A stretch of 64,000 bases of DNA from Nitrogeniibacter aestuarii (GTDB lineage: Bacteria > Pseudomonadota > Gammaproteobacteria > Burkholderiales > Rhodocyclaceae): assembly GCF_017309585.1 (NCBI RefSeq), contig NZ_CP071321.1, positions 156,335 to 220,334 on the forward strand, in the 5' to 3' direction. A program made the position numbers and the translations under genes. This document shows positions 3,722 through 35,948 of the stretch, piece after piece (positions within the stretch are counted from its first letter, which is position 1; the number at the start of each line of letters is the position of its first letter). The notes under the pieces were generated by a model. It did no database searches. It was given only the letters and a program-made list of their open reading frames with translations, and was not told where the DNA came from.

Positions 3722-3726
3722 TCAGT

Positions 3727-3891
3727 AATGCCGTTCAGTTAAGAGAATCCGAGCCTTATAGACGGGTCGCTCCCTCCCCTTCAAGGGGAGGGTTGGGGTG
3801 GGGATGGGGTGAAACTGGGCAGCTCAAACCCCATCCCCCTCCTGACCTCCCCCTTGAAGGGGGAGGAACCGTGCCTTAACTGAACGGCATT
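3727..3891. repeat. Compound palindromic intergenic element between two convergent genes
   Basis: 17-bp perfect terminal inverted repeats: AATGCCGTTCAGTTAAG at 3727-3743 and CTTAACTGAACGGCATT at 3875-3891. These enclose two internal perfect hairpins (CCCTCCCCTTCAAGGGGAGGG and CCTCCCCCTTGAAGGGGGAGG) and G-tract/C-tract complementarity (GGGGTGGGGATGGGG / CCCCATCCCCC). Confidence 0.6.
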
Positions 3892-3900
3892 ACCCCTTGA

Positions 3901-28738: not shown

Positions 28739-28822
28739 TCAGTGCGCTTGAAATGCCGGGCAGCCTAGCATGGCGTTTGCATGATCCGTGAGGAAAAATG
28801 CCTCAAGTCGCCGAGCGGCCGG

Positions 28823-30469
28823 TCACGGCGTCTGCCCGGTGTTTGCGGGGCCTTGAGCGATGTCGGACCAGGCCAGCTCGAACTTCGCCAGATACTTGCG
28901 CAGGCGGTCGGCGTCGTTGACCACCTTCCGCTCGGTGCGCGAGATGTCGAACAGCTGTCGGCCGGCCTCCGACAGGCTCTTGCAGCGACGGCATTCGGCC
29001 ACTACTGCGGCCAGTTGAAGCCGGTCGAAACGATCGAGCGCATCGAGCCGATCCCCCAGCAGGGCGCGCAGACCGGCGGCGTCCGTCTCGCCGGCCTCCA
29101 CCGCCCACGCGTGTCTGAGGCGCTCGATTTCCTCTGCCACAATCGCCTCGTTGATCCGCCCGGCATCCGCCAGGGTCGCCATACGCGTGACCGAGGCCGA
29201 CAGCTCGCGAAAGTTGCCGCTCCAGCGCGCCTCGGGCGAGGTGGCAAAGCGCAGCCAGGCGCGTTTGGCCTCCACGTTGAAGCGCACTGCCTTGCCCAGT
29301 TCGCGGGCATGGCGCTCGAGTTCGAAATCCAGGTTGGGTTCGATGTCCTCGACCCGTTCGGCCAGGCCCGGCAGGGGGAAGGTCCACAGGTTGATCCGGG
29401 CATAGAGGTCTTCGCGGAATTTGCCCTCGCGCACCCATTGGCGCAGGTCGCGGTGGGTGCCGGCGATGAGCATGAAGTCGCTGCTCACCTCGGTGTCGCC
29501 GCCAAAGGGAAAGAAGTGCTTCTCTTCAATCGCCTTGAGCAGCATCGCCTGCTCGTCCAGGCCCAGCTCGCCGATTTCGTCCAGAAACAGCATGCCGTCG
29601 TGGGCCGCCCGCAGCAGGCCGGCGCGCTCGGTCTGCGCACCGGTAAAAGCCCCCTTCACATGGCCGAACAGGGCCGACATGGCCATGTCGCCGCGCAGGG
29701 TGGCGCAGTTCACCTCAACAAATCGCCCCTTCACCTGGTGACGGCGCTGGCGCAGTTCGAAAATGCGTCGTGCCAGAAAGCTCTTGCCCGCGCCGGTGGG
29801 CCCTACCAGCAGCACCGGCGCGGTGGAGCGCACCGCCACCTTCTCGATCTGCTCGATGGTGCGGTTGAAGGTGGCGTTGCGGGTGGCGATACCGCTCTTG
29901 AGGAAAGAGACGGTCTCCTCCGCCTCGCGGGCAAAGCGGGTGGCAATGGCGTCGTAGCGGGACAGATCCAGATCGATGACGGTGTGGGTGCCGCGCACGT
30001 CGCGGGGTTCGCCTTCGTTGGCCTCAGTGCGGCGCTTGCGCGGTGGCGCGGTCTGAAGCAGCCGCGCGGGCAGATAGTGCGCCTCGGTGAGCAGAAACCA
30101 GCAGATCTGCGCCACATGGGTGCCGGTGGTGATGTGGACGAGGTAGTCCTCGGCCTCGGTGTCGAAGGCATAGCCACGGGCGAAATCGTGCAGCGCGCCG
30201 TAAACCTCGCCGAAGTCCCACGGGTCGCGCAGCTCGATCTCCACCGAGCGCACCTCCGTCGCGGGCGACACCTCGGCAATGTCGAGCTTCACCTTGCTGG
30301 CCAGCCCCCGATTGCGGGCGTCGTGGATCAACTCGAGCCGATGCACCGGCAGGCCGTCCTGCTGGCACAGCCCCACCGTGGGTCGCCATTTCTGCCAGCG
30401 TTGCTGCCCCCGGCCACCGTAGTCGAGCACGGTGCCGAGAAAGCCGATCACGACGTTCTTGCGGTTCAT
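28823..30469 (-). CDS. rtcR: RtcR, sigma54-dependent transcriptional activator with N-terminal CARF domain
   Basis: N-terminal MNRKNVVIGFLGTVLDYGG (CARF-type). AAA+ sigma54 interaction module with Walker A GPTGAGKS and GAFTGA motif (HVKGAFTGA). C-terminal HTH. Divergent from an rtcB-containing operon. Confidence 0.85.
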   Translation of the reverse strand: MNRKNVVIGFLGTVLDYGGRGQQRWQKWRPTVGLCQQDGLPVHRLELIHDARNRGLASKVKLDIAEVSPATEVRSVEIELRDPWDFGEVYGALHDFARGYAFDTEAEDYLVHITTGTHVAQICWFLLTEAHYLPARLLQTAPPRKRRTEANEGEPRDVRGTHTVIDLDLSRYDAIATRFAREAEETVSFLKSGIATRNATFNRTIEQIEKVAVRSTAPVLLVGPTGAGKSFLARRIFELRQRRHQVKGRFVEVNCATLRGDMAMSALFGHVKGAFTGAQTERAGLLRAAHDGMLFLDEIGELGLDEQAMLLKAIEEKHFFPFGGDTEVSSDFMLIAGTHRDLRQWVREGKFREDLYARINLWTFPLPGLAERVEDIEPNLDFELERHARELGKAVRFNVEAKRAWLRFATSPEARWSGNFRELSASVTRMATLADAGRINEAIVAEEIERLRHAWAVEAGETDAAGLRALLGDRLDALDRFDRLQLAAVVAECRRCKSLSEAGRQLFDISRTERKVVNDADRLRKYLAKFELAWSDIAQGPANTGQTP

Positions 30470-30805
30470 GAGTTTCGCCAGAAAGATAAAAAACTAGCCA
30501 TTTGTATCTGATTTTAGCGACCGTGTTAAGCGCGTACATGACGAATGGCAATGCCGATAAAAAATTTTGTCTATTGAAAACATGAGTTTGCGATCTTTTT
30601 GAATCCTCTGTCGTATTTCTGGCACGCCCTTCGCAGTACAGAGATCAACCGCGGAATCACCGCTGGAGTACGGGTTGAGGTTCTGGATGCCTCGCCGGTG
30701 CGCTCCCGCCGGATGACGTTGTGTGGGGCGTATGCCGCCTCGGTGAAGAAACGGTGTGCTGGATGCGTGTTGGTACGTTGATTCAGGTTCGACTCCTGAC
30801 ATCCC

Positions 30806-30880
30806 CGTTCGGTAGCTCATTTGGATAGAGCAGCAGATTTCGATCTGTTGGTGGCGGGTTCGAATCCCGCTCGAACACCA
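30806..30880 (+). ncRNA. tRNA-like element (tRNA mimic or degenerate tRNA) with 3' CCA
   Basis: Canonical D-arm (TA-GCTC-ATTTGGATA-GAGC). Canonical T-arm (GCGGG-TTCGAAT-CCCGC). 6-7 bp acceptor pairing (CGTTCGG / TCGAACA) followed by encoded CCA. The anticodon arm is aberrant: CAGAT-TTCG-ATCTG with a UUCG-type tetraloop, or a 6-nt loop. Confidence 0.5.
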
Positions 30881-31126
30881 GCCTGATTAGCTGGCATTTA
30901 TTTCAAGCAGTACCCGCCGGTTGTGGCGGAAAGGGCGGCGGCCCACGCGGCCAACGCCCCGCCCGCCACCGCCGTGCCGGCCGGCCCTTGTGGCTCGCCA
31001 CGGGCAGCGATGGCAACACCTGACGGGTTGGAGGGCGCTTCGGTGACTTCCACTGCCCAAAGGCCTTGCCCCCGCACCCCGAGGCGCCCCGCAGGCGGCC
31101 CGCCGGCACGGCGACAGACTGGTAGA

Positions 31127-31390
31127 GGGGTCATCCCTCGCCATTCGCTGGATCGCGTTGTGCTCATGGCGCTTCGCTGGAACATCTTGAGGCTCGTCGC
31201 ATTGTGCGCATCTGCCTTTTGGAGGGATTCGCAGTAGCCATGAGCACAACCCTGCGGGCTCACCCCTGCTGGGCTCCATGGCCGCGTTGCGACTCCTTGA
31301 CTGGGGGCCACCCAGTCTGCGTCCCCGCGCCTTGCCCTGCAGCCCAGCAGGAGTGATCGCGCCAACGAATGGCGAGGGATGACCCCTCCC
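31127..31390. ncRNA. Candidate long-stem structured RNA (Y-RNA-like architecture) between rtcR and the band-7 gene
   Basis: 23-bp perfect inverted repeat: GAGGGGTCATCCCTCGCCATTCG at 31127-31149 and CGAATGGCGAGGGATGACCCCTC at 31368-31390. Extended by GATCGCG/CGCGATC. Internal hairpin GTGCTCATGGC...GCCATGAGCAC. No convincing ORF. Confidence 0.35.
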
Positions 31391-31426
31391 GGCCACAAGC
31401 CGAAAACAGATGATTGGAGAATAAAA

Positions 31427-32575
31427 ATGAACATGTTGTGGAAGCGATTCGTGGTGAACCAGACCCAGCGCGCGCTGTTGCTGCGCGAGGGCAACTTCGA
31501 GCGTGTGCTCGAGCCGGGTGTGCATCGTGTGATGGACCCGTTCGACCGCTACGCCATCCAGTGCTGGAGCGTGCAGGCGCCGCACTTTGATCACCCGCTG
31601 GCTGAAACCCTGCGTCGTGAGCGGGGCGCGGTGATCGAACAGTACTTCGATGTGATGGACACCAATGAAGATCAGGTGGGCCTGCGCTTCGAGAACAAGA
31701 TGCTGGTCGAGATCGTGCCGCCGGGCGCCCGTCGCCTGTACTGGAAAGGCCCGGCCGAGGTGCGCTTCGAGGTGGTCGAGCTGGCCGAAGGCGCCGAGGT
31801 GCCGGCGCGTGTGGCGCGTCTGCTGAACCAGTCCAACCTGCGTAGCCGCGTGGTGACCGGGCTGGCCGGGGTGTTGAGCCTGCAAGTGCCGGCCTGGCAT
31901 CTGGGTGTGCTGAAGATCGACGGCAAGGTCGAGCGCCTGCTGGAGCCTGGTTTCGTGGCCTTCTGGCGCTTCAACCGCGAGGTGAGCGTCGAGCTGGTCG
32001 ATACCCGTCTGCAAACCTTGGAAGTGAGCGGGCAGGAGATCCTGACCCGCGACAAGGTCGGCCTGCGGGTGAACCTTGCCGCCACCTGGCGCTTTGCCGA
32101 CGTGCTGGCTGCGTTTGCCGCCACACCGAAGCCGGTGGAGCACCTGTACCGCGAACTGCAGTTCGGTTTGCGGGCGGCGGTGGGCACCCGGTCGCTCGAT
32201 GAGTTGCTGGAAAACAAGCAGCTCATCGACGAGGTGGTGAGCCAGCACCTGGCCCAGAAGCTGGCCGGGCAGGGCATCGAGGTGCATAGCGTGGGCGTGC
32301 GGGACATCGTTCTGCCGGGCGAGATGAAGACGATTCTCGCCCAGGTGGTCGAGGCGGAGAAATCCGCCCAGGCGAACGTGATCCGTCGCCGCGAAGAAAC
32401 CGCCGCCACCCGCTCGCTGCTCAACACCGCCAAGGTGATGGAAGAGAACCCGACGGCCCTGCGCCTGAAGGAGCTCGAAACCCTGGAGCGTGTGGCCGAG
32501 CGTATCGACCGCATCTCGGTGTTCGGTGGCCTGGACCAGGTGCTGAACGGCCTGGTGAGCATCAAGTCCGGGTGA
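31427..32575 (+). CDS. SPFH/band-7 (stomatin/prohibitin-like) domain protein
   Basis: 382 aa from MNMLWKRF with RBS GGAGAATAAAAATG. Band-7 core. Characteristic C-terminal coiled-coil (IRRREETAATRSLLNTAKVMEENPTALRLKELETLERVAE). Confidence 0.8.
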   Translation: MNMLWKRFVVNQTQRALLLREGNFERVLEPGVHRVMDPFDRYAIQCWSVQAPHFDHPLAETLRRERGAVIEQYFDVMDTNEDQVGLRFENKMLVEIVPPGARRLYWKGPAEVRFEVVELAEGAEVPARVARLLNQSNLRSRVVTGLAGVLSLQVPAWHLGVLKIDGKVERLLEPGFVAFWRFNREVSVELVDTRLQTLEVSGQEILTRDKVGLRVNLAATWRFADVLAAFAATPKPVEHLYRELQFGLRAAVGTRSLDELLENKQLIDEVVSQHLAQKLAGQGIEVHSVGVRDIVLPGEMKTILAQVVEAEKSAQANVIRRREETAATRSLLNTAKVMEENPTALRLKELETLERVAERIDRISVFGGLDQVLNGLVSIKSG

Positions 32576-32654
32576 GATTGGGACACGGCTTCGCCCGTGT
32601 CGGCCCGGCCGGGTGCGAGGCGATGGCTTCGCACCCGTTGGGGGAGGGCTTGGC

Positions 32655-32865
32655 GGGGCTGAGCGCGAAATGGCGAGCGGCCGGAAATGATTGCCGATAC
32701 CGGTGAAGGGTAAAACCGAAGGCTTTGGAAACGGGCGGTATTTGAGGATGCAGCTGCGGGGTCTGCGTAAGGTTCCGTACGTGGCGCGCGTTTAAAGCAC
32801 TGTTTCGCACGGGTGTCATGCCCCGTGTCGGCCTATTGCGGGTTCGAGTCCCGCCAGCCCCGCCA
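32655..32865 (+). ncRNA. Candidate structured RNA with tRNA/tmRNA-like terminal module
   Basis: 5' GGGGCTG pairs with 3' CAGCCCC, which is followed by discriminator G and CCA. Perfect T-arm GCGGG-TTCGAGT-CCCGC sits immediately before the 3' acceptor strand. Internal hairpins (CACGGG...CCCGTG; CCGG...CCGG). No tmRNA tag ORF. ~211 nt. Confidence 0.45.
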
Positions 32866-32913
32866 AGCCCTTCCCGGAGGGGAAAACGTTGCCCGGATGC
32901 ACGGGAGTGAAAC

Positions 32914-34583: not shown

Positions 34584-35948
34584 ATGGATAATCTGAATTA
34601 TTCCGAATCTGATTTTGGTGAAAGGTTAAACAAAGTACTTTCAGCGTCAAAGCCGATAAACAGCATTGAATTTTTAAAAGGTAGAGATAGAGAGCTAGAA
34701 ACCATAAAACGCGCTCTATACGCTGACGGGAGGCACGTTTTTATCTTCGGAGATCGAGGTGTCGGGAAGAGTTCACTGGGCCAAACTGCTGCGATCGCAT
34801 ACCAAAGTTCGGATGCAGAACCAATCTTCGTTTCGGGGTCACCTGACGATTCATTCTCATCCATAGTGGCCAACATAGTGGCGCGAGCGATTAGCAAGCC
34901 GCGTACGAAAAGCGTAAAAAATTCGAAAAAAATTTCGCTTTCTTTTAGAGGTCTTTCGATTGGTGAAGGGGAAGATGTCAGCCCAATCGATATCGAATCT
35001 AACATCCAAACAATTGGTGATGCTGTTGAACTGCTCAGGCAGGCTGGAAAAGAGCACTCAGCTAAGCCTATCATTGTAATTGACGAGTTTGATACGATTT
35101 CCAGTCTCGATGAGAGAAACAAGTTCTCATATCTTCTCAAGCAGTTGGGAGATCAAGCAGTAAACATCAAATTCATTTTTACTGGAATTGCTCGGTCTCT
35201 AGATGAATTATTAGGAGTGCATCAATCGGCGTATCGGCAACTCGAGACAGTTGAACTGCCTCGCCTTGGCTGGGACGCTCGCCGCGAAATCGTAACTTCA
35301 ACTGCGGCTGCATTCAATATCACTGTGGATAACGATGTAAATTGGCGCATATGTATGGTGAGCGATGGGTATCCATACTACATACATCTTGTGTTGGAAA
35401 AGATTTTATGGGCAGCTTACATTCTAGAGCCTGATATCTCGGAGATTGGATGGGATTTGTTTCATGAAGGTTTGCACGAAGCCATTTTGGCAACAAGTGC
35501 AGAGTTGAAGCGGCCTTACGAAAAAGCGGTATTGCACAGAGAAGAATCATACGAAGATGTTGTATGGGCAACCGCTGATCATGACGATTTAATGAGGTCG
35601 TTGAATGATATGTATGAATCGTACAGATTGGTTGTAGAAAAAAGGAATGATGCGCGCGAAGTTTTAGACCGGGGGAGATTTTCCGCGCTGGTGCGTAAGC
35701 TCAAAGACGCAAGCTACGGTTCTGTACTTACAAGTGTTGAGTCGCGTAAAGGCTGGTATTCCTACAGAGAAAAAATGCTACGCGGATTCGTTCGAATGCA
35801 AGCGCACGTTAACGGTGTCGAGTTGACTGGTGATCGACCAACGCCGAGACAGACGCAGCACGTTGGGAACGCGCGAAAGGGTTACAAAGGCGCAGCTTTG
35901 CCGCGCGGTGTTCGCCAGCGTTCAAAAATCGGAAGTTGGGACGATTGA
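34584..35948 (+). CDS. P-loop NTPase of the AAA_16/Arch_ATPase (ORC/Cdc6-like) type, encoded on a low-GC island
   Basis: Walker A (FIFGDRGVGKSSL) preceded by LKGRDRELETIKRAL. Walker B (PIIVIDEFD). 454 aa. Codon and GC content sharply lower than the flanks (AT-rich from 34555 to ~36540). Confidence 0.8.
   Translation: MDNLNYSESDFGERLNKVLSASKPINSIEFLKGRDRELETIKRALYADGRHVFIFGDRGVGKSSLGQTAAIAYQSSDAEPIFVSGSPDDSFSSIVANIVARAISKPRTKSVKNSKKISLSFRGLSIGEGEDVSPIDIESNIQTIGDAVELLRQAGKEHSAKPIIVIDEFDTISSLDERNKFSYLLKQLGDQAVNIKFIFTGIARSLDELLGVHQSAYRQLETVELPRLGWDARREIVTSTAAAFNITVDNDVNWRICMVSDGYPYYIHLVLEKILWAAYILEPDISEIGWDLFHEGLHEAILATSAELKRPYEKAVLHREESYEDVVWATADHDDLMRSLNDMYESYRLVVEKRNDAREVLDRGRFSALVRKLKDASYGSVLTSVESRKGWYSYREKMLRGFVRMQAHVNGVELTGDRPTPRQTQHVGNARKGYKGAALPRGVRQRSKIGSWDD

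Follow-up and report, generated by a model that had tools for sequence, protein, structure and literature searches.

A putative lineage-specific palindromic insertion between the structured leader and the slipin gene of an RtcR-controlled RNA-repair operon

The window, that is, the whole 64-kb stretch of DNA that was analyzed, contains an RtcR/sigma-54-controlled operon of the order band-7 (slipin)-zf_Tbcl-rtcB. Pfam searches of the neighboring genes returned RtcR, Band_7, zf_Tbcl, RtcB, a STAND ATPase, and an M48 peptidase. The arrangement of RtcB and Band-7 with a band-7-associated tRNA-like element ("b7a-tRNA") is credited to Burroughs and Aravind (2016) in a passage of bioRxiv 10.1101/312249. 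The subject of this study is a palindromic element that lies between this tRNA-like element and slipin, ending 38 nt ahead of the ATG, in an rtcR-slipin spacer that measures 957 nt in the window. The features surrounding the element are as follows.

28823 to 30469, minus strand: rtcR, with a CARF-type RtcR domain and Sigma54_activat, divergent (Pfam)
30620 to 30635, plus strand: sigma-54 -24/-12 element TGGCACGCCCTTCGCA (regular expression; conserved block in relatives)
30806 to 30879, plus strand: band-7-associated tRNA-like element with a 6-nt anticodon loop (Rfam tRNA, 47.2 bits; ARAGORN, tRNA-???)
30916 to 31122, plus strand: conserved structured leader domain, ending 2 nt before the insertion (comparison and fold)
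31113 to 31124, plus strand: left flank GACAGACTGGTA, homologous to GACCGACCGGCA in relatives (alignment and fold)
31389 to 31426, plus strand: right flank, beginning CCGGCCACAAGCC, with the Shine-Dalgarno (SD) sequence GGAG at 31416-31419 (unpaired in the context fold)
31427 to 32575, plus strand: slipin/Band_7 gene, with its true start at 31427 (Pfam, homologs, alignment of N termini)

The sigma-54 element was found at an equal relative position in 41 of 57 rtcR-slipin spacers, and 34 of the 57 held a tRNA-like element detectable by ARAGORN. In the window, the cloverleaf of the tRNA-like element is preceded by an extra T-arm (30783-30879 together), the source of a weak match to YrlA; this match is subthreshold (30 bits against a threshold of 69) and falls on the b7a-tRNA, 270 nt upstream of the palindromic element. 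Anticodons of the tRNA-like elements vary widely or are aberrant (2 nt), and Pseudomonas loci carry two such elements in tandem. The leader domain (30905-31122) is GC-rich, opens with a conserved AGCAGUACCCGYCGG motif, and belongs to no Rfam family. Its long-range closing helix differs by taxon (GUUGGCGU/ACGCCGAC, CCGCCGG/CCGGCGG, and CGGCGCGG/UUGCGCCG), and the left flank of the element, 31113 to 31124, is the 3' strand of this helix.

The locus also holds traps for annotation. An in-frame ATG at 31379-31381, supplied by the right arm of the element, falsely adds 16 codons to slipin (398 instead of 382 amino acids), and the terminal stem mimics a designed RNA. Opposite rtcR, a 576-amino-acid plus-strand open reading frame (28781-30511) has no homologs and is spurious. 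Directly after rtcB, the STAND/AAA ATPase gene (34584-35948) has a G+C content of 43 to 49% against ~65% around it and was therefore probably acquired horizontally; relatives carry nSTAND1 or TIR-STAND genes beside their own rtc loci.

The element is built from inverted repeats nested within one another, with the following parts, none of which is assigned to a strand.

31125 to 31388: whole element, a three-way junction of nested palindromes (precise absence from the colinear leaders of loci L081, L082, and L086; folds)
31125 to 31151: left terminal inverted repeat, 27 nt, the first 23 perfect (repeat and 23-mer search)
31362 to 31388: right terminal inverted repeat (repeat and 23-mer search)
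31125 to 31139: tip hairpin GAGGG-GTCAT-CCCTC inside the left repeat (sequence and motif search)
31374 to 31388: tip hairpin GAGGG-ATGAC-CCCTC inside the right repeat (comparison with relatives)
31157 to 31250: internal hairpin A, 14 perfect basal pairs and an imperfect apex (repeat search and fold)
31254 to 31362: internal hairpin B, 29-nt arms 83% complementary, with a 7-bp apical stem (repeat search and fold)

The initial annotation of this DNA had described a noncoding region upstream of the band-7 gene, closed by a perfect 23-bp stem, and this description held after a shift of coordinates. The 23-mer GAGGGGTCATCCCTCGCCATTCG occupies 31125-31147 on the plus strand and its exact reverse complement 31366-31388, so that the true span is 31125-31388 and the earlier coordinates were off by +2. 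When up to three mismatches were allowed, the 64-kb window contained no match to GAGGGGTCATCCCTCGCCATTCG beyond the two arms (0 expected from 100 shuffles). Allowing one mismatch lengthens them to 27 nt (31125-31151/31362-31388, 96%). A further extension of the stem by GATCGCG/CGCGATC had also been proposed; the two heptamers (31151-31157 and 31355-31361) are both GATCGCG, in direct rather than inverted orientation, so that just 3 to 4 additional pairs (CGC/GCG) are gained. Likewise, the second near-perfect hairpin is present but longer than had been noted: its base consists of 14 perfect pairs between GTTGTGCTCATGGC and GCCATGAGCACAAC (31157-31170/31237-31250). Hairpin B, with arms at 31254-31282 and 31334-31362, completes the three-way junction. 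The element is 264 bp long with a G+C content of 65% and has no Pfam-bearing open reading frame, and its concatenated six-frame translation, in a search aimed at spurious open reading frames over copies of the element, matched nothing in 5.8 billion protein clusters. The position relative to the gene was borne out by the SD sequence at 31416-31419 and the ATG at 31427.

The minimum free energy of the element was -165.9 kcal/mol for the plus strand (z = -9.7) and -171.8 kcal/mol for the minus strand (z = -10.7), and no shuffled sequence equaled the fold energy of either strand. The two folds contained 6 and 5 G-U pairs, respectively. Because predicted energies and G-U counts were similar on the two strands, folding points to a palindrome at the DNA level and not to an RNA that selection has shaped on one strand.

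To compare the site across genomes, we collected 80 related loci from genome contigs by slipin alignment, of which 56 had a divergent rtcR, and used exact-protein look-ups to find the closest relatives. Loci are designated here by L numbers. At the DNA level, slipin was 94% identical to that of the window in L081, L082, and L094 and 81 to 85% identical in L086, L091/L092, and L093. The leaders of L081 and L082 aligned with the window at 456 of 485 positions (94%) with zero gaps over the transcribed leader, and the block absent from them was exactly the 264 nt bounded by the repeats: the junction reads GACCGGCA/CCGGCCAAAAGCC in L081/L082 and GACTGGTA-(264 nt)-CCGGCCACAAGCC in the window. This is a clean empty site, the presence/absence pattern that characterizes MITEs. 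No target-site duplication was seen, the element being flanked by GGTA on the left and CCGG on the right and the empty site in L081 reading GGCA/CCGG. The element was also absent from the colinear L086 and from L091 to L094 and L097; overall, seven close-relative contigs beyond the nearest loci lacked it, as did all 56 more distant rtcR-slipin loci. In these 56 loci, the rtcR-slipin spacers span 599 to 763 nt, ~265 nt shorter than the spacer in the window. When the window spacer was searched against them by blastn, matches fell on the promoter, on the tRNA-like element, and on parts of the GC-rich leader, and none fell on any part of 31125-31388. The longest perfect inverted repeat was 23 nt in the window compared with ≤13 nt in 62 other spacers. 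Lack of conservation at the orthologous rtc locus had been named beforehand as evidence against a functional RNA, and the element was missing from every locus examined. Given its absence from a 94%-identical ortholog and from the other loci, comparison of the sequences indicates that the 264-nt segment is a lineage-specific insertion bounded by its own inverted repeats and not a conserved rtc RNA.

The scaffold closest to the window, L087, a metagenome scaffold of the same clade, has a 100-N gap (positions 2898-2997) that spans the site. From 55 nt upstream of the insertion site, sequence is missing up to a point inside slipin, and the gap is silent on the presence of the element. It suggests an assembly problem, such as a repeat, a polymorphism, or an inversion at the site could produce. 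Since such a gap is expected at a repeat or a polymorphic insertion, we counted it for the insertion reading.

In four loci with slipin genes ~87% identical to that of the window (L083 to L085 and L097), the same junction carries a 20-nt insert with a solo hairpin. The junction reads GGCA-CATC-GAGGGATGAACCCTC-ACAGGCC in L083 to L085 and GGCA-ACATT-GAGGGATCGTCCCTC-CGGGCC in L097. These solo hairpins take the 15-nt form GAGGG-N5-CCCTC in two sister lineages, with a conserved stem and a variable loop, and are near-identical to the right tip of the element in the window, GAGGGATGACCCCTC, of which the left tip is the exact inverse. Searched as GAGGG-N4-6-CCCTC, the motif occurred in the 64-kb window only as the two element tips and elsewhere (753 kb of loci) only as one chance match in a coding region and three unrelated metagenome matches. 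A literature search with the tip sequences found no match. Relatives with the solo hairpin have a CATC/ACATT spacer in front of it that is missing from the window, and the 8 nt beside the right tip of the element (CGAATGGC) are not native. On the slipin tree, the hairpin is distributed patchily: in clade A the window has it and L081 does not, in clade B L083 and L097 have it and L091 does not, and the outgroups lack it. Two explanations fit: the junction may be a repeated target of insertion and excision without duplication, or the solo hairpins may be remnants of older copies. That the tip hairpin recurs here in sister lineages points to a process of insertion or excision that is site-specific and leaves no duplication.

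A Y-RNA-like long-stem RNA had been suggested initially, as had a 5'-leader structure gating band-7/rtcB expression. Neither suggestion was upheld. Two Rfam scans of the element, with E values up to 10, gave no match to 31125-31388; the neighbors of the locus included no Ro60/Rsr (TROVE) gene; and regular-expression searches of both strands of the element detected neither the GNCGAA Ro-binding motif nor a T-loop motif. Together with the absence of the element from orthologous rtc loci, these results speak against a Y-RNA-like RNA. The leader gate, too, lacked conservation. In a fold of the 561-nt context, the element folded as a separate domain directly downstream of the helix that closes the leader domain; the leader domain was left undisturbed, as was the SD sequence; the SD sequence (31416-31419) and the AUG were single-stranded, and this test for a cis-regulatory leader revealed no alternative pairing of the ribosome-binding site. 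No U-tract follows the stem, and no terminator-like site was found at the 3' arm. Similarly, a search for sigma-70-like promoters in both orientations found none in the element, even when the requirement was relaxed to 8 of 12 matches.

Searches for further copies covered several collections. By blastn, the element had no second copy in the 64-kb window or in 725 kb of related loci, and no copy was found among plasmids and phages in distant mode. An 18-mer had no match in viral contigs, and a 20-mer matched JGI metagenomes three times, each time by a single arm in an unrelated AT-rich or coding context that we judged to be chance. No transposase, RAYT, or recombinase gene was found within ~12 kb of the element, and tblastn with a RAYT fragment from L083 yielded nothing in the window. 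Classical DDE-type MITEs carry target-site duplications. Ends of the Tn3 family start with GGGGTC and have a repeat region of ~36 nt; a miniature element derived from Tn3 was ruled out, as there is no 5-bp duplication and no inner TAAG. An IS630-type TA target was ruled out as well, TA being present at the left side only. A REP/RAYT origin was rejected because GTAG straddles only the left junction, no RAYT was found in the window, and the REP sequence of the relatives occurs just once, by chance, in the window.

Other mobile or repeated sequences were seen in the window and its relatives. At 3725-3893, immediately past the stop codon of the gene before it, the window carries a classical MITE-like element. 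It is 169 bp long, has perfect terminal repeats of 19 bp (GTAATGCCGTTCAGTTAAG) and an inner hairpin with 40-nt arms, and is flanked by a 10-bp direct repeat (CCCTTGATCA). Visual inspection suggested a likeness between its GGGGAGGG-rich core and a repeat in the slipin-zf spacer of L097, which blastn did not report. A GTAG-type REP family (GTAGGGCGG...CCGCC) occupies the slipin-zf spacer of relatives (L083, 1360-1490; L081; L097, 3720-3760), and a RAYT-like Y1_Tnp gene lies downstream of rtcB in L083 (3985-4313); the window has neither a RAYT gene nor the REP family. The MITE-like element, the REP family, and the RAYT-like gene together indicate a genome group hospitable to such elements.

In Neisseria, the target-site duplication of Correia elements is TA. 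REPINs, in turn, insert without target duplication, measure ~70 to 110 nt, and occur tens to hundreds of times. Our element resembles the Correia MITEs of Neisseria and QMITE2 of Coxiella in being small and noncoding, with ~23- to 29-bp terminal inverted repeats around a core, and further in its intergenic position, its expected cotranscription with neighbors, and the very stable predicted stem of its transcript (PMC10969869). It departs from them in that their sequence is usually AT-rich and they carry target-site duplications (7 to 9 bp for QMITE2) and occur in many copies per genome, whereas the element has no duplication, one known copy, and 65% G+C over 264 bp. Like MITEs in general, the element is shorter than ~600 bp, lacks coding capacity, and has terminal inverted repeats (27 nt, 96%, 23 perfect). 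A small MITE had also been among the initial suggestions and was the best fit, with the exact empty site in its favor; against it stand the missing target-site duplication and the lack of a second copy in the collections searched.

REPINs share with the element two hairpin-forming inverted ends, its left and right tips being inverted copies as are the two REP hairpins of a REPIN, and the solo hairpins of the sister lineages resemble REP singlets (PMC3116915, PMC3337134). Unlike in REPINs, the tip hairpin is not repeated across the 64 kb of the window and 753 kb of loci, so that high copy number is lacking; no RAYT is found in the window, the REP of the relatives is unrelated to the tips, and the size differs. 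Bacterial Y RNAs of rsr-rtcBA operons (Yrn1, YrlA/YrlB) likewise have a long stem joining the 5' and 3' ends and an association with an RtcR-controlled rtcB operon (PMC4201824), but they are 80 to 130 nt long, lie beside Ro60/Rsr, carry the motif GNCGAA(N)G, often mimic T- and D-arms, and are conserved, none of which applies to the element. The RtcB/Band-7/b7a-tRNA system is the type of locus in which the element resides; the element is a single-lineage addition and not part of the conserved system. As in invertons, inverted repeats bracket a few hundred base pairs directly upstream of a gene, within the 100- to 750-bp range of that class; in contrast to invertons, there is no internal promoter and no invertase nearby, and the core is palindromic. 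We filed the element as an addition, so far in a single copy, to the class of small palindromic insertions.

Taken together, we favor, with a probability of about 60%, a recently acquired noncoding palindromic insertion of the MITE/REPIN kind. It would have landed in the short linker between the structured leader and the slipin ribosome-binding site of the RtcR-controlled RNA-repair operon, arriving by transposition or by hairpin-directed recombination without target duplication; mobility of the element is presumed. The junction GGYA/CCGG may act as a hot spot for insertions and deletions, the solo 15-nt tip hairpin being found there in two sister lineages. When RtcR activates the promoter, the element would be cotranscribed with the operon. 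A perfect duplex of 23 to 27 bp is a standard substrate of RNase III. The transcribed stem is accordingly a likely target of this enzyme, and a cut there would separate the slipin-rtcB mRNA from its tRNA-like leader. We propose such cleavage as the main consequence of the insertion, from the long perfect duplex together with the precedent of Correia transcripts, which RNase III cleaves at the terminal repeats of the MITE (PMC10969869). The effect of leader cleavage may be neutral or mildly modulatory, and the element probably has no conserved role in the rtc system.

We considered it unlikely that the element is instead a functional module in the RNA of the rtc leader, confined to this lineage and developed from a small hairpin native to this position in the clade. 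The long duplex would then be a selected site of processing or regulation (for instance, one where RNase III cuts and so uncouples the slipin-rtcB mRNA from its b7a-tRNA leader) or would serve the repair system as a double-stranded or Y-RNA-like cofactor. The element does lie inside the RtcR/sigma-54 transcript beside other structured RNAs, and its autonomous fold leaves the conserved leader domain and the SD sequence intact; sister lineages keep a hairpin with a 5-bp stem, conserved in the stem and variable in the loop, at the same place, and perfect stems would need selection if the element were old. Should the solo hairpins be what is left of an old insertion, the fact that the window still has perfect stems would imply that pairing was selected and would favor function. 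However, the element is absent from the 94%-identical ortholog and all other loci, hairpin-less alleles occur in both clades, the untranscribed strand folds equally well, and the Rfam family, Ro gene, GNCGAA motif, and T-loop motif are all missing; as a single sequence, it cannot show covariation. In a specific version of this idea, more doubtful still, the RtcR-controlled repair operon would have newly recruited the element as an RNA module: a selected 27-bp double-stranded RNA gate, grown from the junction-native hairpin, that is cleaved by RNase III and possibly resealed by RtcB. Were this so, cleavage and resealing would join the slipin-rtcB message to the b7a-tRNA leader or uncouple the two, selection would maintain the perfect stems, and the solo hairpins of the sister lineages would represent the ancestral form.

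A nonmobile palindrome made locally, for instance through template switching or through replication primed by a hairpin at a native GAGGG-N5-CCCTC, with ~230 nt of foreign or scrambled DNA captured in the process, also seems improbable. It would account for the missing target duplication, the lack of another copy in the searches made, the match of the right tip to the solo hairpin of the sister lineages with the left tip as its exact inverse, and the near-perfect palindromy of all three helices, but the internal 210 nt have no local match, as an inverted duplication of neighboring sequence would. Nor do the nonnative 8 nt beside the right tip (CGAATGGC) and the missing CATC/ACATT spacer of the relatives' solo hairpin agree with a local origin. 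For an inverton, a segment flipped by a site-specific recombinase to alter expression, the 27-bp inverted repeats around ~210 bp are suitably placed 38 nt upstream of the start codon, and the same-clade L087 scaffold breaks exactly at the site, as happens at invertons. This explanation is nevertheless very unlikely: no sigma-70-like promoter was detected in either orientation even at 8 of 12 matches, flipping a core that is itself palindromic would change little, no recombinase gene lies within ~12 kb, and it is the whole segment, not its orientation alone, that is missing in relatives. Least probable was an assembly artefact, that is, a chimeric or fold-back join. The L087 gap and the want of an independent copy of the element are in keeping with such a join, but fold-back artefacts duplicate adjacent native sequence whereas the core here is unique, both flanks are colinear with relatives base for base, and the tip hairpin has independent counterparts in L083 to L085 and L097.

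Taken alone, the element is of little importance, being one more small palindromic insertion, although it does provide a natural experiment, of modest value, in which a perfect 23- to 27-bp duplex stands between the tRNA-like leader and the coding part of an RNA-repair operon. A more useful outcome is that the conserved RNAs of the locus lie elsewhere, namely, in the b7a-tRNA, the leader domain, and a third RNA, which resembles a tRNA and lies between slipin and rtcB. This third RNA, at 32634-32882 (core 32655-32865) between slipin and zf_Tbcl, is the long-stem RNA that the locus does conserve. It gave no Rfam match and no ARAGORN call. Homologs were found in the corresponding spacer of L034 (5159-5371), L012 (5175-5391), L028 (2771-2981), and L087 (4124-4334), with a partial homolog in L068 (5300-5429). 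The RNA is ~215 nt long, with an invariant T-arm (GCGGGUUCGAGUCCCGC), a discriminator base and encoded CCA, and a large conserved internal domain of ~190 nt. It looks like an unannotated tRNA-like RNA of band-7/RtcB operons. Changes on both sides were observed in 20 of 61 predicted pairs among four distinct sequences, and the acceptor-like stem of 7 to 8 bp varies in a compensatory manner (GGGGCUG/CAGCCCC, GGGUACG/CGUGCCC, GGGCAUG/CAUGCCC, and GGGCGUG/CACGUCC).
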